64,000 nucleotides of DNA from a virus, in the IMG/VR virus record IMGVR_UViG_3300045988_181613; one strand, given 5' to 3'. This document shows positions 56 through 60,849 of this stretch, one piece after another. Under the pieces are notes generated by a model that made no database searches, was not told the DNA's origin, and saw only the letters and a program-made list of their open reading frames with translations. Made by a program: the position numbers and the translations under genes. The stretch's first letter is position 1; every line of letters starts with the position of its first letter.

Positions 56-1482
56 ATTGTTTTCGCCTTTACTTTTCTGGAAGTTCCTTTTTCTTTCTTT
101 TCTGGAAGTTCAACTTTAGAAGTCAAGCTATAATAAAGTTCCATTGTTCTACTTCTATCATAAAATTTTCCATGATCATAATCAGAAGCTATCGTAAATA
201 CAGATTGAGAATCTTTATAATCACGAAATTTATCGATAAAGATTCTCATTCTTTTTTCTTTTTTCTCTTGCATTGTCATATTTCCTGTAAATACAAAAGA
301 AAAAGGTTTTACTAATGTTCTATCTCCTTCAGTATTGGAGCGGTCGATAACACGATCTTCGTTATTCCAAACTTCAATTGGAACATCACTCGCTTGTGCT
401 GCTGTAATTACAACGCAATTAAATTCTACTGCAATATCTTTTAATAACTGGGCATTACGTTGTAATTTATGTTTTAAATATTCGGGATCATTATCTATTT
501 TATTATTAGTTCCGGTCTTTGCTAAATCTAATGAATCTAAAATAATTAATCGAGGAGCTCTTTCATATATATTGATATAATCTATAATTAAATTTCTAAT
601 ATCAGTCATAGAGGCTTCTCCGAATTTTGCAAAACCATAAACATCAATGTCTTGCCCGAAAAATTGCATTTCTTTACATGCTTTAAGAATCTTTTCTTCA
701 TCTTCCGGTTTTATATGACCCTTTTTAATATCTATAAAAGATTGATTCGTCCAGATTTGATCATATTTATCTGTACAAGCATCAATACCTCCTTCTAACT
801 GGATATGTAAAACAGGTTCTCCTTCCAGAGCGGCTGAATATCCGTGCCATCGCAAAACTGTTGATTTTCCAATACCGGATCTCATTATCCATAAAACTGT
901 ATCTCCTGGATCTGCTCCTCCATAAGTTAGTTCATCTAATTTGTCAATACCAAATAAAATTTTCTTTTGTGTTTTTGTTGTATTTTGTTCCTCTCTTCTT
1001 GCTCTCATTCTTTCTTTGAAATCAGCAAAAATTCTAACAAAATTTCCTCCCGTTTTTCTTAACGAAATTTTTAAAATCTCTTTGCTTTCTTCTGCATTAA
1101 CTTGGATCGCTTCTTCTTCTTTCCCTTCTTCATAAAGATCATGAACTTTTTTACTAAGAATTTCAAATTCGGTTTTCTTAATAAAAGTTTCTAATTGATC
1201 TATGATTAACTCCTTATCAGCAAGATTTGCTGCTTTTATTTGCTCAATTGTTTCCTGTACTTCTTTGTTATTTGCAAATTTTTGTGCTGCAACACCTAAG
1301 GAAGGTACAGATTCTCTTTTATTAAATTGTTCGACTGCTTCTTTAAAAAGGAACTTATAACCAACCCATTCTTTTGGAATGTGTTGGTAAGTTAAGTGTC
1401 CATTCACCATACGGATAATATTAATATCCAAAAACATGAGTTTAAAAAGCTCTGCTAAAAAATTCGGACTTAATTTCTGCAT
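52..1482 (-). CDS. DnaB / T7 gp4-like RecA-fold helicase (replicative helicase candidate)
   Basis: 476 aa. Walker A-like MRSGIGKST, Walker B-like RLIILDSLDL, and a DnaB C-domain-like stretch ITAAQASD...DRSNTEGDR. Start overlaps the terminase stop. Confidence 0.6.
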   Translation of the reverse strand: MQKLSPNFLAELFKLMFLDINIIRMVNGHLTYQHIPKEWVGYKFLFKEAVEQFNKRESVPSLGVAAQKFANNKEVQETIEQIKAANLADKELIIDQLETFIKKTEFEILSKKVHDLYEEGKEEEAIQVNAEESKEILKISLRKTGGNFVRIFADFKERMRARREEQNTTKTQKKILFGIDKLDELTYGGADPGDTVLWIMRSGIGKSTVLRWHGYSAALEGEPVLHIQLEGGIDACTDKYDQIWTNQSFIDIKKGHIKPEDEEKILKACKEMQFFGQDIDVYGFAKFGEASMTDIRNLIIDYINIYERAPRLIILDSLDLAKTGTNNKIDNDPEYLKHKLQRNAQLLKDIAVEFNCVVITAAQASDVPIEVWNNEDRVIDRSNTEGDRTLVKPFSFVFTGNMTMQEKKEKRMRIFIDKFRDYKDSQSVFTIASDYDHGKFYDRSRTMELYYSLTSKVELPEKKEKGTSRKVKAKTI

Positions 1483-3164
1483 TATACGTAATCTACTTTA
1501 AATGTTACTTTATTATCTTCTCTTAATTTATTTATCGCCATAAAAGAACTTGAGACAATATCATCATGAGCTCCAACTGCTTCAAGTTTCCCTCTATCAC
1601 TACGAAATGTAATAGAAGAAAATTCTCCAAAAACAATTTCAATCATTTTCCGAGTATCTCCATCTTTATATGGCACTCTGATCTGACCTCTTTCAAACAT
1701 AGCAGAAAGACTTGGCCAACCAGAATGAAGATCTTTTTTATTTCCATCAGTTGTTGTGAAACTTTCTATATTTTTCAATCCTCTTTCTCTTGCTAATGCA
1801 GAAAGTATACCTTGAAATCCATTTGCTTCACAAACAATAGTATTTGGTTTAAAAAGACGATCCCAAAGCACAATTTTATCAATCTGTTCATTATGGCTCA
1901 TCCCCTGTTCTCTGTGAACCGCCAATAAATAAAAATTATTCATGGCATCAATTCCCCAAACTGTAAATACAGTAAAGTCAGCTCCAATATTACCGGAAAT
2001 AGCAAAGTCACAGCCAAGAACTACTTTCTTCATCTTAAAAGGAAAAGTATCAATACTCTCCGAAAATGAAATATTTTCCATACCAATAGTTGCTCTCATC
2101 AAATATTCATATGGGAAAATAGTACTGCTATCTGCAATAGGAACTACAAGATACTCACGACTAAATACCATTGTTCCTAATTCTTGCTTCTTTTCTAAAA
2201 GATCTTCAAAAGTATATCTATCTGGTGCCAATGGTCTTCCATCTGGAAATATTACAGGATATTCAAATACAGCGAATCGTTTGTCTGCCTTAATCAAATT
2301 ATATAATTCATTAGGAGCGGTTGCATATGGTGTACCTGTTACAAGTAAATATCCATAGGGTTCAACAATTGGCGTAATTGTTCCTCTAAAAACTTCTTTT
2401 AGTTTTTCTCTCTGTTCATCACTATACAAAGAACTCTCATCTGGTAAGTCATCTACTAAAGCTGCTCCAACATGAAGACCACGAATAAATCCATCTTTAC
2501 CACGAACATGAAGCATTGAACCTGTTTCAGTCTCTAACCCTGTTTCTCCAATTTTTGCTTTACCATTTGGATTAAGTTTTTCGGAAATAATTGGATTCAT
2601 CTGAATTTCTTCAATTATTTTTCCTACATGAACTTTTGCCAAAGTCATTGTATTGGTAATTAAAGCAGTTTCTTTTCGATTCTGATTATCAATTGTATTC
2701 TTTCTATAAAAAGAAGGTCTATAATAAGAATACAATCTCCAAAGAATAAAAGAATATGCCCATTGATAGGATTTTCCAGATCCACGAGAACAAAGATATC
2801 CTGACCAAGGAAATAACTGAGTTAAATTCCCCCATTCAAGATTTCTCCATCCCATTAAGAAGTTTGTTAAAACTGTTGCATTAAAGTAATTCCATGACAT
2901 TACTCTAAGCTGTTCATCCATTGTTGCTTTGACGCACTCCACATAATTTAATAATTCTGAATCTAAACTCTTTCCAAGATTCAAAGATAATTCAGTGGAA
3001 CGTTGCATTTCTATGATCATTGCATCAATGTCATAAGAATATCCGCCAAGAAGTTCATTTAATGCAGCAGGTGGCAAACGCTCGATAATATCTGATACCG
3101 TTGCATTTATTCTTTCAGCTTGCATAGCTGATAAAACCAGTTTTCCATCAAACGATTTTATCAT
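1482..3164 (-). CDS. terL: terminase large subunit
   Basis: 560 aa. P-loop-like CSRGSGKSYQWAY, Walker B-like AALVDDLPDE, and C-terminal RNase H-like nuclease acidic motifs (LGCDFAISG, GAHDDIVSS). Confidence 0.85.
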   Translation of the reverse strand: MIKSFDGKLVLSAMQAERINATVSDIIERLPPAALNELLGGYSYDIDAMIIEMQRSTELSLNLGKSLDSELLNYVECVKATMDEQLRVMSWNYFNATVLTNFLMGWRNLEWGNLTQLFPWSGYLCSRGSGKSYQWAYSFILWRLYSYYRPSFYRKNTIDNQNRKETALITNTMTLAKVHVGKIIEEIQMNPIISEKLNPNGKAKIGETGLETETGSMLHVRGKDGFIRGLHVGAALVDDLPDESSLYSDEQREKLKEVFRGTITPIVEPYGYLLVTGTPYATAPNELYNLIKADKRFAVFEYPVIFPDGRPLAPDRYTFEDLLEKKQELGTMVFSREYLVVPIADSSTIFPYEYLMRATIGMENISFSESIDTFPFKMKKVVLGCDFAISGNIGADFTVFTVWGIDAMNNFYLLAVHREQGMSHNEQIDKIVLWDRLFKPNTIVCEANGFQGILSALARERGLKNIESFTTTDGNKKDLHSGWPSLSAMFERGQIRVPYKDGDTRKMIEIVFGEFSSITFRSDRGKLEAVGAHDDIVSSSFMAINKLREDNKVTFKVDYV

Positions 3165-5879: not shown

Positions 5880-6030
5880 TATGTATCACTAGTGAACTAC
5901 CCACGAACTAAAGATTCGTGGGCTTCTTGGGCTGAGTGAGCATCCTCACTCATATCTCCACAAGCGTAGATTTCGGTCGTTCCAACCGTATTTATGTTTC
6001 TGAAAGCGAATCTCTTGATGTTGTTAGCGG
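5880..6030 (-). ncRNA. candidate omega (right-end) guide RNA of TnpB
   Basis: In characterised TnpB systems the guide RNA is transcribed from the 3' end of tnpB through the right-end hairpin (5900..5922 here). The boundaries given are a guess. Confidence 0.3.
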
Positions 6031-7096
6031 CAAGCAAATCTCTATCGTGTATTGAGCCACATTTGGGGCATATCCATTCTCGCATAGCAAGAGTAAGATT
6101 GTGATTGATATATCCACAAGTACACATCTTAGAACTTGGTTCAAAGCGACCAATGCGAAGGATATTCACTCCTCGTTCTTTTGCTTTATATTCCAATAGT
6201 GTGTTGAATGTCCCTATGGCAATATCCTCAAGTACTTGAGCAAGGTGGTGGTTTTTGACCATACCTTTTACATTCAAGTCCTCAAGACAAATAGTGTCGT
6301 AGTTGTTTACAAGATAGGAAGTAACCTTGTGCAAGAAGTCGTTTCTTCTATTAGTTACTTGCTCGTGTGCTAACGCCAACTTTCTTCTCGCTTTATATCT
6401 ATTCTTAGAACCTTTGTTTTTGTGAGATAGTGAGCGTTGAAGTTTCTTGACCTTATCGAGTGATTGCTTTAAGTGTTTAGGATTAGGTATTTCAGTCCCA
6501 TCGGAAAGGACAGCGAATGTTTTAATACCGAGGTCTATACCAACTGTTTTGTTCTCGCAAATTGGCTTCATAGGCACATCGGGTTTATTCACTTCCACAA
6601 GAATTGAAACGAAATACTTGCCTGTCGCAGTTCTTGAAATAGTAGAAGATTTCACTATACCTTCAAATGTACGATGAAACTTAGTCTTGATACCACCCTT
6701 GAACTTTGGAATGAATATGCGACCATTTTCAAAATCTACCCTTGTGTTTTGAGGTATAGAGAAACTTTGCTTGCTATCTTTCTTAGACTTGAATCTTGGG
6801 AAACCTTTGTGTTCTCTAAAGAACTTAGTATAGGCTGAATCAAGATTGGCAAGTGAGGCTTGAAGTGAAAGCGAATTAACCTCTTTCAACCAACAATACT
6901 CTTCTGACTTCTTCATCTTCGGCAAGTCCGCTTGAATATCGAAACGAGAAAGATTAGTTTTATCGATTTGATACGCTCTCACTTTCTTGTCAAGAGCATA
7001 GTTATAGATGAAACGACAAGAACCAAGATGCTTTGCTATAAGCACCTTCTGCTCCTCGTTCGGATATAATCTATATTTATATGCTCTGTATTTCAT
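5897..7096 (-). CDS. tnpB: TnpB RNA-guided endonuclease (IS605 OrfB family)
   Basis: The true start is probably MKYRAYKYRLYPN at 7096; the track ORF begins at an upstream GTG inside the left end. Motifs: RuvC-I VGIDLGIKTFA, RuvC-II ICLEDLNVKGM, zinc finger CTCG...CPKCG, RuvC-III HDRDLLAANNI. Confidence 0.9.
   Translation of the reverse strand: MKYRAYKYRLYPNEEQKVLIAKHLGSCRFIYNYALDKKVRAYQIDKTNLSRFDIQADLPKMKKSEEYCWLKEVNSLSLQASLANLDSAYTKFFREHKGFPRFKSKKDSKQSFSIPQNTRVDFENGRIFIPKFKGGIKTKFHRTFEGIVKSSTISRTATGKYFVSILVEVNKPDVPMKPICENKTVGIDLGIKTFAVLSDGTEIPNPKHLKQSLDKVKKLQRSLSHKNKGSKNRYKARRKLALAHEQVTNRRNDFLHKVTSYLVNNYDTICLEDLNVKGMVKNHHLAQVLEDIAIGTFNTLLEYKAKERGVNILRIGRFEPSSKMCTCGYINHNLTLAMREWICPKCGSIHDRDLLAANNIKRFAFRNINTVGTTEIYACGDMSEDAHSAQEAHESLVRG
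5900..5922 (-). repeat. IS right-end hairpin (8-bp stem, loop TCTTTAG)
   Basis: Perfect stem CCCACGAA/TTCGTGGG. It overlaps the last tnpB codons and ends immediately before the TAG stop (5897..5899). Confidence 0.8.
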
Positions 7097-7194
7097 ATTG
7101 CAAATATACAACAATTTAACAACAACTACAAGAAAATCTAAAAAAAAGTTTAGGATATATAGAGAAAAACAACTAAATTTGTGACGCAATTCAT

Positions 7195-7218
7195 CCACAC
7201 AGGCTAAAGACCTGTGGG
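7195..7218 (-). repeat. IS left-end hairpin (loop TCTTTAG)
   Basis: Stem CCCACAGG/CCTGTGTGG with one bulge and the same loop as the right-end hairpin. It lies 8 nt from the TAG of ORF 7227..7463. Confidence 0.75.
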
Positions 7219-7226
7219 ATTTCTTG

Positions 7227-7463
7227 CTAAAGCAGTATTAAAATTGTCATTAATATAACAGTCGCTCCTAACAAACGAACAGCAAAATTTTCAATCATTT
7301 GCTCTCTACTTATCTTAAAGTTCTCAATACTTGAACATCTGCATGTCAAATGAATCTTTAGCCAAAAGAAAGTTTCTACTGTATTCTTCCAGTCTCCTTG
7401 CAGAAAACACTTCGTCATCCATCCTACAAGCCAAAGAAAATGTTTTATCCATTCATATATCAT
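7227..7463 (-). CDS. hypothetical protein (C-terminal TM helix); stop abuts the IS left end
   Basis: 78-aa ORF with an ATG at 7463. Its C-terminus is LLGATVILMTILILL and its TAG lies next to the IS hairpin. Confidence 0.4.
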   Translation of the reverse strand: MIYEWIKHFLWLVGWMTKCFLQGDWKNTVETFFWLKIHLTCRCSSIENFKISREQMIENFAVRLLGATVILMTILILL

Positions 7464-7494
7464 TGTTTCAATCTACACTCCTTTATGGGTGCTG

Positions 7495-7992
7495 TTATAA
7501 ATTAGAATTATTACTACATATATAATTAAACTTACATCTCATACATTTACCTCGATTGTAAAGAATTCCATTAAAAGATGAACAAATTATGTAACCTCTT
7601 GGGGTTCCAAAATATTTTTGTCTTTGTTCATCTAAATATACTTCTGATAAAACACAAGATTGCTTAATTGGATTACTTAAATTATGATCCATTTGAAATT
7701 TACTTGTAAAATAAATTTGCTGTGAATCTCTTTCTTTATACGCTTTATATGCGTTTTCACTTGTAAATTGATTGAACGGTATAATTTTATAACGATTATA
7801 CTTAGATGTTCTTAAAACAAAAATAAACGTTATAAAATTATACATAGGAAGGATAAGATCAGTATGCTTATCTAAAAAGCTTTTCACCTTTTTAGCATTA
7901 TCTCTTTTTTTAAGAAGAGAATAGCCTGGATTACTGATTAATGATCCTTGTATATATTCATATATTTCAATAAATTCTTCTTCTGGTAACAT
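7495..7992 (-). CDS. hypothetical protein
   Basis: 165-aa ORF with a Cys-rich C-terminus (CMRCKFNYIC). No family recognised. Confidence 0.55.
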   Translation of the reverse strand: MLPEEEFIEIYEYIQGSLISNPGYSLLKKRDNAKKVKSFLDKHTDLILPMYNFITFIFVLRTSKYNRYKIIPFNQFTSENAYKAYKERDSQQIYFTSKFQMDHNLSNPIKQSCVLSEVYLDEQRQKYFGTPRGYIICSSFNGILYNRGKCMRCKFNYICSNNSNL

Positions 7993-8015
7993 CTGGTTAT
8001 TTCTTTAATTAAAAG

Positions 8016-8039
8016 AAAAGGATGAGCTATCATCCTTTT
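8016..8039 (-). terminator. intrinsic terminator-like hairpin (10-bp stem, 4-nt loop)
   Basis: AAAAGGATGA-GCTA-TCATCCTTTT, followed on the minus strand by CTTTTAATT. It sits between a promoter box and the ATG at 7992. Confidence 0.6.
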
Positions 8040-8047
8040 CAGCATTA

Positions 8048-8056
8048 TAAAGATAC
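8048..8056 (-). promoter_or_regulatory. -7 promoter box GTATCTTTA
   Basis: Minus-strand GTATCTTTA, 55 nt upstream of the ATG at 7992. One member of a family of more than 20 copies. Confidence 0.5.
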
Positions 8057-8097
8057 AAACAATAATTATAAAAACAATCGAAATGGTTATGCTTTTA

Positions 8098-8673
8098 TCA
8101 TGTCCAGCTGATTTGAAGATCAATTAATTCTTCAGTCTCCTTTTCTTTCGGCTTATATCTACTACTGAAATAAACAGCATTTGGAATTTTTTCTGCCACA
8201 TCATTATAATCTGCTTTTATTACTTCTGAATCTAAAATCCTTGCAAACCATAAACCAATAGATTTTCCGGGTTCTAATGATCCAATAGATACCTTTGACT
8301 CAACATTTGCTGGATATAATTGTGTATAAAAAGGTTTGCTATAAATAGTAGGAATATTTTCCATAATAGGATTTCCATCAGCATCTGTATTCATAATTAC
8401 AGCTCCGATCAAAAAATCACAATACAGGGTTTTCGTTCTTGAAGAATCAAACCAAAACTCCACATCATTGGCTGTCTCCGGAAGTTCATTTACCAGAACC
8501 AAAGCCCTATACTGAGTTTTAGCCTGTTTCATCCCATACAAACTTAAATCATCAAATAAATTACCAAAACTGTCATTTGGTATTGGAGTTGATGATTTAT
8601 ATCCTCCCAATGAATTAGTTGGGATTAACTGTGCTGCATCATAGCCTGCTGTTGTAGTATAATATAGTTTCAT
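8098..8673 (-). CDS. hypothetical virion protein (fibre module)
   Basis: 191-aa ORF packed directly behind the fibre genes. Assigned by position only. Confidence 0.5.
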   Translation of the reverse strand: MKLYYTTTAGYDAAQLIPTNSLGGYKSSTPIPNDSFGNLFDDLSLYGMKQAKTQYRALVLVNELPETANDVEFWFDSSRTKTLYCDFLIGAVIMNTDADGNPIMENIPTIYSKPFYTQLYPANVESKVSIGSLEPGKSIGLWFARILDSEVIKADYNDVAEKIPNAVYFSSRYKPKEKETEELIDLQISWT

Positions 8674-12500: not shown

Positions 12501-14426
12501 TGGTAGCCAATCTTTCTTTTCTACTGAATATGTATAATTGCCTCCTAATAAATCTCTGATAATAGCAGTTCCTGTACTGTCAGTTTGAGCTGTTTTACCT
12601 CCAATAGTAACTATTGCATCTGGTACTGGATTATCTCCATGTTTCACAATAAAGATAAGCGTATATATAGGGATTAATTGTAGAGTCACCTCTTCAATCA
12701 TATCATCCTGTACCAAAATACTTTTCTCAACCTTATAGTATTTATCTTTTTCTACAGTATAAGGATATAAATCCGGATAAGCATAAAAGACTGCTGTTCC
12801 GTCGGATCCGGTGGTTGCAAATTTTCCATTAAAAGTTATATTTGCGCCTGCAACAGGTAAATTATTTTCATCTCTTACTGCAAAAGTAATTTTTCTTTCA
12901 TATAATTCTCCTTGTAAAGGAATATAGATAATTTGTTCTTCTTGTTCAAAAACTGATTGAAGCTGATCTACAATAGGAATAAATTTATCTTTATCTACAG
13001 ACATTAAATAATCACCCGGGTAAAGTTGCATAGAAGCTTCCCCGTTAATATCTGTGGTTAACGTTTCATTATTAATAGAAATCGAAGCACCCTGGATATA
13101 AACCCCTCTATCTGAAAATACTTTGAAACGAACTAATACCAATTCGTTTTTAAAAATCTCCGAACCTCCAAAAATATTTTTATAAGAGATTAAATAAGTT
13201 TCTATGAATTGTTTTACTGTGTTATTCGATGATAAAGAATTATTCTTAAAGTAAGATGCGATAATGTTCTTTTCACCAAGATATCCTTGATTAAACGGTA
13301 AATAAATAGGTTTTATCTTTATATCATAAATATAAATACCTGAAATCGCATTTGTTGCAGTTGTTCTATCTTGAGTTAATTCAAGACTTAAATATTTTGC
13401 GCCTGTCTGAAACTTTAATCCCCTTCCATAAGGAAAGTTTAATTTTACCTCTTCGGAGAAACTTCTGTTTACTTTAGAAATAGTTCCAGTACATTGATAA
13501 TATATATTCGGAATAGGAAAGTTTAAATTACCGGTTCCTCCATCAGTATTTTTGACAAAATTATTCGATTCAATAGGAGATTGACCACTTATAGTAAATG
13601 CCTCTACACAAGATATTGGCCTTTGTAATTCATCATATGTTTGTACTCCAAAATGAATCTTCTGATCCGTGGTACTACTTACTTTTATTTTAAATTGAAT
13701 TTGGTAAGCAAGATCTTCACTTATTGTTAAGAGTTTCGATTTATCTTCTGCAGAGCTAATACCTGTTAAAGTATTACCGACAAAAGACATTGCCTTAATA
13801 GGATTTCCATCGTTATCAGTATCATCTACAATAATAATACCTGTAGGATTTATGAGTGGATATTTTGAAAGATCTGTAACAGATTCTGTCATTTCATATC
13901 CTTTTGAAATATTTAAGACGGTATCTGTTCGATTCCAAATTGGAGAACTATATCCTAAAGTCCATCCTGTATCACGAGGCATTAATAAGGCAAAGATAAA
14001 TTCATCCAATTCTCCATATTGAATTAATCTTAAGAGTTCACCAAGAATAACACCTTCTTTAGAAACAATATCCATTCTACCTCTTTTTCGATATTCATTT
14101 ACATAATTATCGAAAAGATACTGCATTTGTTCCAGGGTAGTTATTTCATTCGTAACAAGACCACGATTTTCAATGAATAATTCAAAAAGAATTTTATTCG
14201 TATCTATTTGATTATATTGACGGGAATATATTACAACCAGAGCAAATAAATGGCAAATAGATCCCCAAAAAACTTGGAAGTCTTCACTATCTTTTTTTAT
14301 AAAAGTAGGAAGAATTCCAGTTCCGCTAATTTTTGATAAAACATTATCCGCCCAAGCCAATACTGCTGGATCATTTTTCTCAAAAAATCTTTTAAAAACA
14401 GTCTTGTTATAAATCTCTTCTGCCAT
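9537..14426 (-). CDS. tail fibre protein: N-terminal anchor, about 9 prealbumin-like (CarboxypepD_reg-type) repeats, C-terminal BspA-type leucine-rich repeats
   Basis: 1629 aa. Repeats follow the pattern VTFxVxDxxGxPVxGAxVxxxGxxxTTxxxGxAxFxLxxGxYxYxVxKxGY. The C-terminus has about 12 copies of the F-x-x-C-x-x-L motif (FKNCTGLTSI, FMGCTSLQSIP, FRSCTRLTNL, FYGCSNLNKIP). Confidence 0.8.
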   Translation of the reverse strand: MAEEIYNKTVFKRFFEKNDPAVLAWADNVLSKISGTGILPTFIKKDSEDFQVFWGSICHLFALVVIYSRQYNQIDTNKILFELFIENRGLVTNEITTLEQMQYLFDNYVNEYRKRGRMDIVSKEGVILGELLRLIQYGELDEFIFALLMPRDTGWTLGYSSPIWNRTDTVLNISKGYEMTESVTDLSKYPLINPTGIIIVDDTDNDGNPIKAMSFVGNTLTGISSAEDKSKLLTISEDLAYQIQFKIKVSSTTDQKIHFGVQTYDELQRPISCVEAFTISGQSPIESNNFVKNTDGGTGNLNFPIPNIYYQCTGTISKVNRSFSEEVKLNFPYGRGLKFQTGAKYLSLELTQDRTTATNAISGIYIYDIKIKPIYLPFNQGYLGEKNIIASYFKNNSLSSNNTVKQFIETYLISYKNIFGGSEIFKNELVLVRFKVFSDRGVYIQGASISINNETLTTDINGEASMQLYPGDYLMSVDKDKFIPIVDQLQSVFEQEEQIIYIPLQGELYERKITFAVRDENNLPVAGANITFNGKFATTGSDGTAVFYAYPDLYPYTVEKDKYYKVEKSILVQDDMIEEVTLQLIPIYTLIFIVKHGDNPVPDAIVTIGGKTAQTDSTGTAIIRDLLGGNYTYSVEKKDWLPASKAITVSADETINIELNPIPTYNITFLVNDYNPFTGEKIPLSGATVSYAGITKNTAEDGTASFIVKGGSYSYSVSYANHVSQNGTYLAMEDSTKVIDLAQVQYKTTIKVVGENNRLLKGATVQIGNTTLTTGDDGTAIFNLPNGNYSYKINYTEYHENTGDFAVNNADQTITVNLDQKTYAVTFTVRQEGAISVGAIVTLGSNSLPTDNLGQAVFYIPVSTTPYSWTVSKTDYVTQSGSIDMTGVPVSREINLVRKTSVVTFYVTDDNGSAVSGATVVVAGQTRSTGANGRIEFTIAVGSYDYTISKLPDYQEQSGNVRVTENDQIVNVVLSNKVYNIIVTVKSPKNRNISGASVSISGKSGSTNFSGQATLTDFKNGTYSLSVNSSGYNTHTENVTVSGSNAYVTVTLTYILDSGTITVYKEDSVLTNQSVSIEIYDRHGDYYNTLSQPTNNYGRVSFSGPSGGTSYVSVNNSECVALEDISVSNGGSRTLYLWKALILTFNNSTSTPSGLSSSDWDRNGNDVRCCPGAKNNPSSVSSSRLTISCSGMTRLISIKQWPISFSITGSSGSVPGSGNYGVFKNCTGLTSIASGSPHIYGGVIEWFMGCTSLQSIPSGLFLNMTGNAATGAFRGCTSLTSTSTGPLVPLGTVYHTSMFRECSKLTTIGDSIFGQGGGTDDFHAVFMGCTAYTNSSGFQSTDSPFKRSTNAIYMQWTFANCRSLRVASISWFRYCTKVQSFESCFESCTNLRTYSMVMFAWSTSLTRMKGTFYNCTYLPDPDAGVGQSVTIIDYIFYNCKSVFNLDQFDLSYHTNLQSAAHAFEGSGVEKTAYRLFRSCTRLTNLTAAFKNCTNLKSFGYNGTYTLSPATGVGPTEVHISYMFEDTAFYSVNYPTLDCTEMFYGCSNLQAGTYSIGGYLVALWVANGKGIGKVKLDRMFYGCSNLNKIPCYRTDVSTARITDSVNSNVVSHSQTFTGTNVVSEVPSGWA
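9660..10766 (-). repeat. BspA-type LRR (LRR_5-like) coding repeats
   Basis: The F-x-x-C-(T/S)-x-L-x-x-(I/L) motif recurs about 12 times in the last 450 aa of the fibre. Confidence 0.6.
11100..13139 (-). repeat. array of about 9 diverged ~85-aa prealbumin-like domain repeats (coding)
   Basis: Periodic GA-V-x-x-x-G...T-D/T-x-x-G-x-A...G-x-Y-x-Y motif. Boundaries are approximate. Confidence 0.65.
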
Positions 14427-14433
14427 TATTGCC

Positions 14434-14562
14434 TTAATTATTTTTCTCGGATTTTTCTTCAGGAGAAGTACTTGTTTTCTTAATTTCTTTTTTTAAAGAA
14501 TTACTCTTAGGTTTCTTCTTTCTTAAAAAAGAAATTGCATGTATATTACTAATTATTCCCAT
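14434..14562 (-). CDS. small basic hypothetical protein (42 aa)
   Basis: Below the ORF-track cutoff. It reads MGIISNIHAISFLRKKKPKSNSLKKEIKKTSTSPEEKSEKNN and fills the gap between 14574..14906 and the fibre gene. Confidence 0.3.
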   Translation of the reverse strand: MGIISNIHAISFLRKKKPKSNSLKKEIKKTSTSPEEKSEKNN

Positions 14563-14573
14563 ATTTAATTTTC

Positions 14574-14906
14574 TTAGATACCCACATTAAATTTGGTTAC
14601 TGTAGTTCCCTCTGCATAGATTCTTTCAATCAAATACATCATGGGAGATCCAAGAAATGCTGTAACTTCTGTAGATGAGATTACAAATTTTTCTCCTGGA
14701 TTATCTGCCAAACCAACTGTTATTTCACCTTCAGATAATGGTATGATAACAAAAGGAATTTTAGCCCTACTTTGACTCTCAATAAAAAAATCTTCAGATA
14801 TAGAAGTGAAATTCCAAGCTCTTGTTATAATGGCTGGAACGGGAAAACCCTGAGGACTTGTTATCTGTGCTCTATTTGTATTAACTCGAACGATATTAGC
14901 TTTCAT
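14574..14906 (-). CDS. hypothetical protein
   Basis: 110-aa ORF. It is the first gene after the inverted-repeat segment and has a promoter box 34 nt upstream. Confidence 0.6.
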   Translation of the reverse strand: MKANIVRVNTNRAQITSPQGFPVPAIITRAWNFTSISEDFFIESQSRAKIPFVIIPLSEGEITVGLADNPGEKFVISSTEVTAFLGSPMMYLIERIYAEGTTVTKFNVGI

Positions 14907-14940
14907 ATTACTATATTTTTAAGCGAATTTATTTCAACTG

Positions 14941-14949
14941 TAAATATAC
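14941..14949 (-). promoter_or_regulatory. -7 promoter box variant GTATATTTA
   Basis: 34 nt upstream of the ATG at 14906. It lies just outside the left inverted repeat. Confidence 0.45.
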
Positions 14950-14991
14950 AAATTATTTTAATAAAACTACTCTTGTTGGACTATTTTAAAC

Positions 14992-15038
14992 TATCAACTG
15001 GACACTACATACAAATATGTCTCTATGTTGGTTGTTGG
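14992..15038. repeat. left copy of a perfect 47-bp inverted repeat
   Basis: TATCAACTGGACACTACATACAAATATGTCTCTATGTTGGTTGTTGG. It is the exact reverse complement of 16382..16428. Confidence 0.95.
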
Positions 15039-15681
15039 AAAAGGAGGCGCCACTACTACTTCTTATGGTGGTGGATCTGGAATGGTTGCTTATAAAAAGA
15101 ACATGGAGATTATTCCTGAAACTTTTTCTGCTATTAGCGTAAACTTCACTAATGATACTTTGGTTTGGTTGTTGTCTGAAGTTGGAGCTGTAGCGAGTAA
15201 TTATATTCAGGCAGGAAATGGAAATTTAAGTGATGGTGCTACCGCAGTTCAATATTGGTTAAATGGAGATTCTGCTGTTGATCAGCTTGATGGTTATGGT
15301 TCAAATGGTGGTGGTGGAAAATTCAGTAATAATGTCGTTAAGAATGCAGGTACTGCAGGAGGGGGTTCTGCTGGAGATGGATCTTACTTAGGAACTGCTG
15401 GAAAAGGAGGTGATGGTACTTTTGGTTATCGAGGAGCTGGAGGTGGTACTGGTGTTTCTAAAGGAAATGTTATTCCAGTATATTCTATTTTTCAAGGTTA
15501 TGCAGCAGGTGGAGAAGGACAATATAATGACAACACAAATGCTGGAGGCGCTGGAGGATATGGTAGTGGAAGTAGTTGGAATGCTTCAGGCAAACCTAAT
15601 TATGGTGCTGGTGCAAATGGAGGTAATGGTAATATAAGTGATGGTATTGTCTGCTTATATTACCATAACAATCCACTTTAA
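15025..15681 (+). CDS. glycine-rich fibre-tip paralog, inverted and possibly silent copy (cassette B)
   Basis: 218 aa and the only structural gene on the plus strand. It shares MLVVGKGG...GGGSGMV...CLYYHNNPL with 15721..16467. Its frame is homologous from NYQLDTTYKYVS upstream of the ATG, but is closed by TAA at 14962..14964 with no start codon there. Confidence 0.65.
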   Translation: MLVVGKGGATTTSYGGGSGMVAYKKNMEIIPETFSAISVNFTNDTLVWLLSEVGAVASNYIQAGNGNLSDGATAVQYWLNGDSAVDQLDGYGSNGGGGKFSNNVVKNAGTAGGGSAGDGSYLGTAGKGGDGTFGYRGAGGGTGVSKGNVIPVYSIFQGYAAGGEGQYNDNTNAGGAGGYGSGSSWNASGKPNYGAGANGGNGNISDGIVCLYYHNNPL

Positions 15682-15685
15682 TTTT

Positions 15686-15707
15686 GGGAGAGAAATCAAT
15701 CTCTCCC
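15686..15707. terminator. bidirectional terminator hairpin between the convergent glycine-rich genes
   Basis: GGGAGAGA-AATCAA-TCTCTCCC with T-rich flanks on both strands. It lies near the centre of the repeat-bracketed segment. Confidence 0.6.
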
Positions 15708-15720
15708 TTTAGTATTTCGT

Positions 15721-16467
15721 TTAAATAGGGTCGTTATGATAATAAAGACAAACGAGTCCTGCCGATTGATAATTCCATCGATAGCTGACTCCTTGTCCAT
15801 AACCTCCGGTATCTCCTCCAGAATAACCTCCAGCACTTCCATAATATGATAATGTTCCACTACCGTAACTACCTCCACCTAATCCACTACCTCCAAAAAT
15901 AGAATTCAATGGAATAATGGTTCCTTTTGTCACTGCAGTTCCGCCTGTTCCACCTTGATGTCCAAAAGTACCATCTCCACCAGATCCTCCGTTGCTATTA
16001 TTAGCATTTCCATTAGAACCTCCTCCTCCATAGAGATAACTGTTACTACCTGCATTTGATCCATATCCATCAAGTTGTGAAGTCCAATCTGATTGGGAAG
16101 GTTCCCCTACATTCGCAATCCATGCAACTAAAGCTGCTCCATCACGACTATTAGCGTTTCCTGCTTGAATTTGGTGATAATGATGTTGGATTGATCCATT
16201 TGCATTAATAGCTCTATCTACTTCAAGCAATGTATAAGTATCTCCGAAACTTATTGTATTGATTCTATTATAATATCCAAATGAGCTTTTGGTTTGCCAA
16301 TTTTTAACATATACTACCATTCCACTACCTCCACCAGTACCAGTAGGAGTTGTTGCACTATAAGGTACAACGTAACCTTTCCCAACAACCAACATAGAGA
16401 CATATTTGTATGTAGTGTCCAGTTGATAATTGGATTGATTGGATGTTATCTGCACTAATTTCGGCAT
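15721..16467 (-). CDS. glycine-rich fibre-tip protein, expressed-orientation copy (cassette A)
   Basis: 248 aa with Gly/Ser/Asn-rich runs (GGGGSNGNANNSNGGSGGDGTFGHQGGTGG). Its ATG overlaps the stop of the upstream fibre gene (TAATG). Confidence 0.75.
   Translation of the reverse strand: MPKLVQITSNQSNYQLDTTYKYVSMLVVGKGYVVPYSATTPTGTGGGSGMVVYVKNWQTKSSFGYYNRINTISFGDTYTLLEVDRAINANGSIQHHYHQIQAGNANSRDGAALVAWIANVGEPSQSDWTSQLDGYGSNAGSNSYLYGGGGSNGNANNSNGGSGGDGTFGHQGGTGGTAVTKGTIIPLNSIFGGSGLGGGSYGSGTLSYYGSAGGYSGGDTGGYGQGVSYRWNYQSAGLVCLYYHNDPI
16382..16428. repeat. right copy of the perfect 47-bp inverted repeat
   Basis: Reverse complement of 14992..15038. It encodes residues 14-29 (YQLDTTYKYVSMLVVG) of 15721..16467. 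Confidence 0.95.
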
Positions 16468-16994
16468 TATTGCAGTGTGTAATCGAAGGTAACTGTCTCT
16501 CCTCCTTCTATTACTCCTCCTGTTGAAACAGTCTGATAATTTTCCTTTGAAATTTCTATAGTGTAAACTCCTCCTGGAACTGCTGTAAATATTGCTTGAC
16601 CACTTGTATCTGTATTTTTAGTTTCTTGTATTCCATTAGAGGGGGTCAATTTTACGACTGCTCCTTCAATATTCGCCGCACTACTATTCTTCACTTGAAT
16701 AGTAACACCATAAAGTGGTGTTATATTTATCAGAACATCTTTATTTGAAGTTACAACAAGATTCGTTTGATTGTATACTTCATTGTAATCAGTAGCGAGG
16801 ACTTCTAATGAATATGTTCCATTTTTTACCTCACTGATCACAGCCTTTCCTTGTGCGTTCGTTACCGCTGATTGTAACAGAAAAGTTTCTTCTATGTTAG
16901 ATGGAGAACTAACAGAAGAATCAAACGTTACTATATCCTGACGAATGTCAGAATTAGCTCTTAAAGTTCTTATTTTTTTTTGATTCATTGCCAT
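16467..16994 (-). CDS. fibre protein with two prealbumin-like repeats
   Basis: 175 aa containing two copies of the same repeat type found in the giant fibre proteins (GKAVISEVKNGTYSLEV; GQAIFTAVPGGVYTIEI). Confidence 0.65.
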   Translation of the reverse strand: MAMNQKKIRTLRANSDIRQDIVTFDSSVSSPSNIEETFLLQSAVTNAQGKAVISEVKNGTYSLEVLATDYNEVYNQTNLVVTSNKDVLINITPLYGVTIQVKNSSAANIEGAVVKLTPSNGIQETKNTDTSGQAIFTAVPGGVYTIEISKENYQTVSTGGVIEGGETVTFDYTLQ

Positions 16995-17000
16995 TTATTT

Positions 17001-17150
17001 TTAACTGAATACGTACTTAAATTTTCCGTTACCGAAAGGTTCTCTTTTAATAGTTGTCCTAAACGGTAGTTCTCCTAATGCTCTAATTTGATTTAAAAGA
17101 TCTTTTAATTCGCCCGAATTAGTTATAAATCTCCCTTTCTCACCATTCAT
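17001..17150 (-). CDS. small hypothetical protein (49 aa)
   Basis: Below the ORF-track cutoff. It reads MNGEKGRFITNSGELKDLLNQIRALGELPFRTTIKREPFGNGKFKYVFS and fills the gap between two fibre genes. Confidence 0.35.
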   Translation of the reverse strand: MNGEKGRFITNSGELKDLLNQIRALGELPFRTTIKREPFGNGKFKYVFS

Positions 17151-17182
17151 TTTATATTGTTGTTAATTTAATTTTCTAATAA

Positions 17183-17217
17183 TCTGATTACACAGCAGTA
17201 ATTGCCGCGTAATCAGA
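17183..17217. repeat. hairpin spanning the stop codon of the 1992-aa gene
   Basis: TCTGATTAC (17183..17191) pairs with GTAATCAGA (17209..17217), giving a 17-nt loop. It lies immediately 3' of the A-depleted patch. Confidence 0.5.
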
Positions 17218-60350: not shown

Positions 60351-60453
60351 GGCTTTTATTTTAGCTCGCCAAATTATTTTGCTTAAAATATTTAAACGCT
60401 CTCCTAATAAATCTTATCAATACATCAATGATCTTTTCTCTTTTTCTTATACC

Positions 60454-60462
60454 TAAATATAC
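60454..60462 (-). promoter_or_regulatory. second, tandem -7 box GTATATTTA (112 bp upstream of the first)
   Basis: It is part of a roughly 112-bp tandem duplication. ATTTTGCTTAAAA occurs at 60376 and 60488, and GCTCTCCTAATAAAT at 60398 and 60510. Confidence 0.4.
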
Positions 60463-60792
60463 GGCTTATTCCTATACCTACAAAAATATTTTGCTTAAAA
60501 ATGCTTCAGGCTCTCCTAATAAATACTACTGTATTTTTGATAGATTTTATTTATACCCTTAATAGATCTACTTTATCCTCTGATTTATTTTAAAGCGATT
60601 TAAACAGCGATCTATATTTTAGCTTAGGAAGACTATAGTTTTAATATTTTTCTTCAGTAAATCGCTTTAAAACTATATATATGCGATTCATTTATATATT
60701 TCATTATGCTATTTTGATAAATAGTTTCTATCAATCATAGCGATCCTATAGATATTTTCTATCATTATTTTCATCCTTTTTAATCCAAATAT

Positions 60793-60826
60793 TTTGGCTC
60801 GCCAATAAATAAGCCCTATATTTAGG
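60793..60826 (+). promoter_or_regulatory. plus-strand promoter (TTTG-20 nt-TATATTTAGG)
   Basis: It has the same architecture as the minus-strand family but in the opposite orientation. It lies 23 nt upstream of the ATG at 60850. Confidence 0.5.
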
Positions 60827-60849
60827 TATAAATAAAAACAAACAATAAA

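Follow-up and report, generated by a model that had tools for sequence, protein, structure and literature searches.

The 64,000-nucleotide stretch of DNA analysed here (IMG/VR record IMGVR_UViG_3300045988_181613, hereafter the window) covers the late and structural genes of a large myovirus, among them those for portal, major head protein, sheath and tail-tube initiator, together with that for a Baseplate_J protein fused to a 1992-aa fibre. In its tail-fibre region two glycine-rich genes lie tail-to-tail between the arms of an inverted repeat. An initial annotation, made from the letters alone, had read this arrangement as an invertible cassette which would exchange the body of a fibre-tip protein. 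The two 47-bp arms are perfect complements and are coding in both copies, just as it had described, and the match extends to 56 nt at 96% with two mismatches (14989-15044 and 16376-16431). Among the inverted repeats of the whole window this pair is the only long and near-perfect one; the remaining pairs are 24-109 nt in length with 72-92% complementarity. A fuzzy search of the window returned the two arms only, and tblastn returned the two cassettes only. Another inverted repeat is present in a region of small ORFs (60441-60501 and 60777-60837, 61 nt, 77% complementary, arms 275 nt apart).

The protein bodies encoded by the two cassettes, called type A and type B, are 39% identical over 245 aligned positions (E 7e-26), which confirms that they are paralogs. 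Beyond the repeat, the identity of their DNA reaches about 72% at most, and the codons of the shared C-terminal CLYYHN motif differ (TGC TTA TAT TAC vs TGT CTT TAT TAT), so the divergence noticed at first holds. Type A lies on the minus strand next to the upstream fibre gene. Type B lies on the plus strand, and all other long non-nested ORFs in the window are on the minus strand, in agreement with the earlier remark that it is the sole structural gene of that strand. Its frame is closed by TAA at 14962-14964 and open from 14965, and the first in-frame ATG (15025) falls within the repeat, also as annotated. The hairpin between the two stop codons is a stable fold (-14 to -15 kcal/mol, z -3.6 and -4.3). 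It had been proposed to terminate transcription in either orientation, but the U-tract is present on the plus strand only, and therefore the hairpin is no symmetric bidirectional terminator. Beyond the segment, where a promoter box had been annotated, a sigma-70-like site lies at 14937-14910 on the minus strand, ahead of a 110-aa gene; taken over the whole region, such sites show no enrichment (15 found vs 10.6 expected).

The 175-aa gene upstream of the type A cassette matched CarboxypepD_reg (Pfam, E 2.3e-16). In relatives P0002, P0003, P0005-P0009, P0020 and P0022 the Ig domain and the body form one protein of 399-435 aa, and P0022 and P0009 consist of the constant part joined to a B body. 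In the window strain a 1-nt deletion (GG to G; CACTGGCAATAATG to CACTGCAATAATG) splits this fibre ORF into 175 aa and 248 aa. When the junction was aligned in 11 loci, an independent 11-nt deletion was found at the same place (window 16465-16475) in the sister assemblies L017 and L018. Either mutations are frequent at this junction, as at a hot spot, or the phage tolerates a tip that is expressed separately. The initial annotation relied on 12 extra N-terminal codons and the TAATG coupling, which are present in the window but do not make up the whole constant part. Judged from the continuous ORF of the relatives, the constant part would be about 195 aa, including the 175-aa gene and the first ~24 codons of the body ORF, and would end inside the repeat.

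Neither body matched any Pfam or PHROG family. The AF2 model of the type A body (pLDDT 73, pTM 0.79) has a beta-rich head at about residues 1-131 and an irregular glycine-rich tail at 132-248. A PDB search with the body gave no sequence match and no fold match. In BFVD the model matched phage "glycine-rich domain" proteins and mycobacteriophage minor tail proteins (E 1e-7 to 1e-3). In a distant clade of relatives the corresponding body makes up the C-terminal 270 aa of a fibre that exceeds 2280 aa. It is plausible that the body is the distal, receptor-facing tip; binding to a receptor is suggested by its position and variability only.

Seven loci of the close clade were compared: the window, L019, L021, L022, L026, L027 and L028. 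All seven have the repeat and the tail-to-tail pair, with differing bodies (types A, B, C, D, G and mosaics), and each body type was found in both positions, that is, beside the constant part (expressed position) and on the opposite strand (silent position). For the B body the silent position is seen in the window and L026, the expressed position in L019 and L021. The silent B of the window is 98.7% identical over 636 nt with the expressed body of L019, while the flanks are 82-94% identical, and 89% identical with that of L021. The A body takes the expressed position in the window and L026 and the silent one in L022 and L027. An A' body, silent in L022 and expressed in L026, is 100% identical over 693 nt, as are the 1500 nt on the downstream side of the segment.

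The A-type tail always adjoins the AATACTAAAGGGAGAG side of the hairpin spacer in the seven loci, and the orientation of the spacer tracks the tail class. The spacer thus flips together with the bodies, which means that two orientations of the whole segment exist: orientation I in the window and L026, and orientation II in L019, L021, L022, L027 and L028. Among the public protein clusters fused to the constant part, four have class-1 tails and six have class-2 tails, and the converse is seen among the short ORFs. Comparison with related phages, which had been suggested as a check, therefore recovered both arrangements, with bodies exchanging positions at 98.7-100% identity. It supports the view, on sequence comparison, that this segment has inverted in nature and joined the constant N-terminal part to the alternative body, as first supposed. 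The silent cassette is missing from L006, L009, L011, L012 and L015, and L001, L024 and L025 are single-copy loci without repeat.

Other records gave little further information on orientation. A scan of JGI metagenomes returned only 3 loci, two of them single-copy relatives without repeat and the third a contig (L023) ending inside the repeat. We discounted this end as a sign of heterogeneity, because assembly graphs break in any case at a repeat longer than k. Contig L020 (1354 bp) was considered as an excised segment and rejected, since it is a low-coverage fragment. The predicted flipped product of the window strain, a chimeric protein of 242 aa, was not on record by exact look-up, and a 224-aa record ("MLVVGKGYVV...") was rejected as a flip product because it is a gene-calling variant from the 11-nt deletion of L017 and L018. 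The only related record in INPHARED, MT835500.1 (unannotated, unverified), has no silent copy. Exact search of the repeat in IMG/VR and GTDB genomes gave no match and no clue to host or prophage.

A second point of exchange may exist inside the cassettes. The LDGYGSN motif at the boundary of head and tail domains ranks second among the exact inverted repeats of L019 and L022. In L028 the expressed gene has a D head (100% identical with L021) and a C tail, and the silent gene has a C head and an A tail; both genes change type at nt 310-340, which is at this motif. These mosaics are the product expected if a (D/A, C/C) parent underwent inversion between its inner motifs, and hint at such an event. 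Parental forms for the L028 mosaic are present in the data (P0002, P0012).

In the distant clade (IMG/VR), where the bodies are about 30% identical, perfect repeats of 42-68 bp are also found, placed at the same codons but differing in nucleotide sequence. The Y-type body is nearly always a short ORF there and is fused to the giant fibre in P0073 (2669 aa), P0082 and P0084. The reciprocal product is P0044, in which the silent-side flank peptide MINLHFFLFFLYQSS is joined to the X' body that L003 expresses. In L008 of this clade about 1.4 kb (~6870-8286) without recognisable silent cassette separates the end of the fibre gene from a 108-aa gene; it could be a decayed or a different insert.

Table 1. 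Coordinates of the putative invertible fibre-tip locus in the window.
Feature	Position	Strand	Remark
Inverted-repeat arm, expressed side	16382..16428	-	Encodes YQLDTTYKYVSMLVVG
Inverted-repeat arm, silent side	14992..15038	+	Perfect complement of 16382-16428
Type A cassette, expressed position	15721..16467	-	248-aa ORF
Type B cassette, silent position	15025..15681	+	218-aa ORF without the constant part, starting at Met within the repeat
Central hairpin spacer between the two stop codons	15686..15707	.	Would invert along with the bodies
Inner conserved motif LDGYGSN, head/tail domain boundary	15286..15307	+	Candidate second crossover point
Partner of the inner LDGYGSN motif, in the expressed cassette	16053..16074	-	Inverted orientation, 20/22 bases
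Constant N-terminal fibre part, 175 aa	16467..16994	-	Two carboxypeptidase-regulatory-like Ig domains
TAATG stop/start overlap	16465..16469	-	From the 1-nt deletion splitting the fibre ORF

The two arms of a genome evolve together. Arms differed on average at fewer sites within than between genomes (0.7 vs 1.4 and 1.3 vs 6.4 sites; permutation p 0.028 and 0.0016). Where the repeat is polymorphic (e.g. TAT/TAC, AAA/AAG), the two arms of one genome carry the same variant, and those of the distant clade co-vary at several synonymous and non-synonymous sites. The length of the repeat varies by genome (25+17, 41, 42, 47, 51, 53, 57, 67 and 68 bp). A 10-nt core, CATACAAATA, is common to the repeats of both clades, with synonymous divergence elsewhere. 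The dN/dS of the bodies is 0.17-0.31 whatever their position, and 0.28 for a pair in which both copies are silent (window B and L026), so by this measure the bodies, including the silent-position copy, are under purifying selection. In the silent copies of L005 and L013 the first start codon occurs 26-37 codons past the repeat-encoded YKYVS, although the frame is open through the repeat, and this argues against stand-alone expression.

Neither Pfam nor PHROGs revealed a serine or tyrosine recombinase among 54 ORFs of the window, in accord with the initial annotation. We extended the search to a reconstruction of about 106 kb, consisting of the window, 10 kb past its low end and ~34 kb walked on a close relative (IMG/VR 3300045988_182100), whose PolIII is 99% identical with that of the contig behind L029 and L022 and which meets the high end of the window at 94-98% DNA identity. 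Resolvase, Phage_integrase and Recombinase domains were absent from all of it. A RecA of 340 aa (E 1.7e-77) is encoded by the relative (L034 6221-10239), about 15-18 kb past the low end of the window, flanked by a Mre11/SbcD-like phosphoesterase and a 660-aa ORF without Pfam match. The walk on the relative also gave UvrD and SNF2 helicases, a NAD-dependent ligase and RNase H. Because this relative is 94-99% identical, the window phage probably encodes RecA too.

We consider it moderately probable that the locus is an invertible module of two cassettes which forms the distal end of a tail-fibre gene and is flipped by homologous recombination. The constant part would be transcribed with the late operon, and the body adjoining it would be made as the fibre tip, whereas the other body, on the opposite strand, tail-to-tail and without a constant part, would serve as reserve copy. 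Recombination between the 47-bp arms would invert the 1.34-kb segment and exchange the tips, each composed of a beta-rich head and a glycine-rich tail domain. A weaker second crossover at LDGYGSN would swap the tails alone, giving up to four head/tail combinations. The engine would be ordinary homologous recombination during replication, aided by the phage's own RecA, and not a dedicated invertase. Homologous recombination is favoured by the variable repeat length, the homogenisation of the whole repeat, the absent invertase and the phage RecA. Binding of the tip to a receptor, recurrent switching within populations and the RecA-type engine are the parts of this model which we infer.

A wider picture can be advanced only tentatively. 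The hosts of this locus may be apparently lytic gut phages with no integrase, which would combine an invertase-free RecA switch of the fibre tip, gene-converted arms, an inner crossover and a trade of cassettes between co-infecting phages, and in most relatives a diversity-generating retroelement (DGR) beside it.

Several findings weigh against the proposed module. No exact (A,B)/(B,A) pair was found among the genomes compared, and cassette partners differ between genomes, so recombination between phages is also required. The evidence for both orientations is drawn entirely from consensus assemblies, across genomes. Where the repeat is longer than the assembler k-mer, the orientation of a contig is not determined by the graph, which weakens L026, L028 and the distant clade. 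In that clade the flipped state is rare (3 of the 82 cluster members listed, and 0 of 8 IMG/VR loci with a silent copy). As for the engine, RecA is known from the contig of the close relative, outside the window; 47 bp is short for recombination of RecA type; the inner motif matches at only 20 of 22 bases; and many ORFs were left unannotated by Pfam and PHROG (e.g. 642, 450 and 392 aa). Finally, the plus copy may possibly be expressed independently from the Met at 15025.

The main rival is that the same cassette is flipped in trans, by a serine or tyrosine invertase of the host (probably Bacteroidota) or by an unrecognised phage protein, acting at a site inside the repeat. We think this rather unlikely. 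The sharp, perfectly conserved coding repeat recalls the gix/cix/hix and shufflon layouts, and invertible regions without nearby recombinase gene are known (PMC9881135). The shortness of the repeat, above all of the 22-nt inner motif, and the many unannotated phage ORFs also speak for it. The 10-nt core kept across both clades would fit a recombination site, but it consists of Tyr and Lys codons, which have few synonymous options. The domain search over ~106 kb is unfavourable to an invertase of the phage. Moreover, repeat length varies by genome and tracks the extent of coding sequence common to the two paralogs, and concerted evolution spans the full 40-68 bp, which implies gene conversion and long heteroduplex, products that serine invertases, with their 2-bp overlap, do not give. 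The 110-aa neighbour was also tried as inversion factor and rejected, being uncoupled from the silent cassette: it occurs without it, and is missing from L019 and L021, which have it.

We regard it as improbable that there is no functional switch, with the two convergent paralogs each expressed alone, gene conversion keeping their 5' ends identical, and the swaps being rare rearrangements. Through the frameshift, the window's own "expressed" body stands as a separate 248-aa ORF, so a free-standing body may be viable, and the plus copy has its in-frame ATG at 15025. As the phage makes no use of Shine-Dalgarno sequences, the missing one before the plus copy is uninformative. However, the product from 15025 would lose predicted beta-strands one and two entirely and the third in part (residues 3-7, 11-15 and 22-28; pLDDT 86-88), and the silent copies of L005 and L013 lack a start codon close to the conserved N-terminus. 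Purifying selection on the silent-position copy is what an independently expressed gene would show; yet the silent cassette is dispensable in the five loci lacking it. Orientation is nearly constant in the distant clade, as rare rearrangements would leave it, but swaps are repeated in two clades, the two reciprocal products have been recorded, and the swaps are recent (98.7-100% identity of bodies vs 82-95% of flanks). That the orientation differences are an assembly artefact of a repeat exceeding the k-mer is very improbable: repeats of 57-68 bp in L026, L028 and the distant clade are above the common k of 55 and L023 ends inside the repeat, but the contigs L021 and L022, both of orientation II, were assembled with k=141, the window repeat is 47 bp and its arrangement recurs in several independent assemblies, the perfect repeat of L019 is only 25 bp, and the genomes hold different cassette pairs, not one pair flipped.

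The neighbours of the locus are 110-aa and 42-aa ORFs without Pfam matches, and the fibre genes. The 110-aa protein (14574-14906, minus strand) belongs to no family and lies directly downstream of the fibre-tip locus in both clades (L010 7806-8132; 40% identity). It could be a fibre accessory protein or chaperone.

The GC content of the window is 32%. A Shine-Dalgarno-like motif precedes only 6 of 50 genes, and the leaders are A/T-rich, as in Bacteroidota phages; the sparse motifs fit a host of the Bacteroidota type. The phage is reconstructed as a gut myovirus of ~106 kb; it has no integrase and looks virulent. The only transposase-like gene in the window is TnpB / IS605 OrfB (5897-7198, minus strand), with OrfB_IS605, HTH_OrfB_IS605 and Cas12f1-like TNB domains. 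Its insertion looks recent, for L029-L031 have no called gene of such size at the corresponding place. The 10 kb past the low end hold genes of 7-deazaguanine synthesis and PolIII alpha. In the relative L029 this cluster (13003-19059) includes PTPS (QueD), a radical SAM protein (QueE-like), GTP cyclohydrolase I and QueC, which suggests 7-deazaguanine modification of the phage DNA, and the PolIII alpha gene (19951-21431) carries intein and GIY-YIG domains. The large terminase of L031 (7296-10001) is 901 aa with a homing-endonuclease intein, vs 560 aa in the window (1482-3164). Just past the high end, a relative encodes an ECF-type sigma factor with Sigma70_r2/r4 (L213 15830-16357). A PHROG match of 23163-23897 to endonuclease VII was not used, because the Pfam HNH match was sub-threshold (E 0.004, 17.7 vs a cut-off of 21.4 bits).

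Relatives of the phage have a DGR beside the locus. In them (L021 8183-8293, 8427-8537 and 8699-9988) a 111-bp variable repeat is located at the end of the giant Baseplate_J fibre, mismatches with the template repeat occur at template adenines only (13-18 sites), and a reverse transcriptase of 424-429 aa follows. In the window phage the template repeat and the reverse transcriptase are gone. What remains is a GC-rich stretch like a variable repeat (17254-17358, at the 3' end of gene 17188-23166) and a 49-aa ORF (17001-17150). We considered the DGR as the source of the cassette repeat and rejected it, since that repeat is perfect, inverted and free of adenine-specific mismatches, and the DGR of the relatives targets the neighbouring giant fibre. 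Both systems serve to diversify a tail fibre in its distal part. Unlike the DGR, the cassette needs no reverse transcriptase and has its repeat at the 5' end of the variable part, and the window keeps the cassette pair. If the switch is real, most relatives would have two mechanistically different diversifiers of host range in one tail module.

Invertible tail-fibre segments are known from Mu (G segment, Gin), P1/P7 (C segment, Cin), e14 (Pin) and p15B (Min), the last with several crossover sites and many combinations. Fibre switching by inversion is a classic of temperate enterobacterial phages with a dedicated invertase, and Mu and P1 invert mainly in the lysogenic state. As in Mu, P1, e14 and p15B, the constant 5' part here lies outside, the alternative 3' parts lie inverted inside, the repeats are coding, and inversion would exchange the distal part that determines host range. 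Unlike in Mu and P1, no serine invertase is adjacent or present in ~106 kb, the segment contains no tail-fibre assembly gene, and the phage has no integrase and looks virulent. The bodies are unrelated to Mu S/S' or P1 S, being a glycine-rich domain without Pfam family. The gix/cix/hix sites are short imperfect dyads of ~26-34 bp with a 2-bp core, assisted by a Fis-bound enhancer. The repeats here are 25-68 bp, variable between genomes and homogenised over their full length, and the palindrome seen by eye in the window repeat is 5 bp only (ACATA..TATGT). The shufflon uses the Rci tyrosine recombinase on four or more segments with 19-bp sfx repeats; the phage here has no Phage_integrase domain, and the window has only two arms and two cassettes. 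The comparison with the Mu G segment in the initial annotation thus holds for what the segment would do, but not for the enzyme or for membership of the family.

Flip-flop between inverted repeats that is independent of a dedicated recombinase is known from chloroplast and herpesvirus isomerisation. In the cyanophage A-1(L)/Elbi, isomers of ~30 kb have no dedicated recombinase identified, and general recombination is suspected (bioRxiv 10.64898/2026.02.14.705889). Our locus is like these systems in having both orientations in close relatives with no phylogenetic correlation, no dedicated recombinase and arms homogenised over their full length. In them the repeats are 400-700 bp or longer and multi-gene blocks are inverted with proteins unchanged, while here coding repeats of ~50 bp would change the product.

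Gene-altering programmed inversions, or intragenic invertons, are found in bacterial chromosomes or prophages, usually beside a tyrosine or serine recombinase gene (Milman et al. 2023, PMC9881135; Chanin et al., bioRxiv 10.1101/2023.03.11.532203), and prophage tail-fibre genes are enriched among their targets (PMC9881135). Invertons have seldom been reported from gut viral genomes, the first putative ones having been claimed in PMC13501310. The present locus shares with programmed inversions the long repeats at or in the coding 5' end, the full-length gene beside a promoter-less partial paralog on the other strand, and both orientations among strains; that class is defined by read-level heterogeneity, and here orientation comes from genome comparison. 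It differs in belonging to an apparently lytic phage known only from metagenomes, with no recombinase gene.

If our reading is true, the same inversion logic is used by abundant uncultured gut myoviruses without integrase or invertase, and a short coding repeat together with general recombination suffices for bet-hedging of host range, which could then be far commoner than recombinase-based searches reveal. The mosaic repertoire of tips in these phages would also be explained by it. In predicting the hosts of phages and in engineering them, the silent cassette would count as a second, hidden specificity. The locus is a concrete test case for inverton callers on viral contigs. By its missing invertase and its unrelated proteins it falls outside the Gin/Cin family, and it is no shufflon either. 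In its layout it fits a segment that works like Mu G, P1 C and p15B Min, and it fits the operational class of gene-altering programmed inversions.

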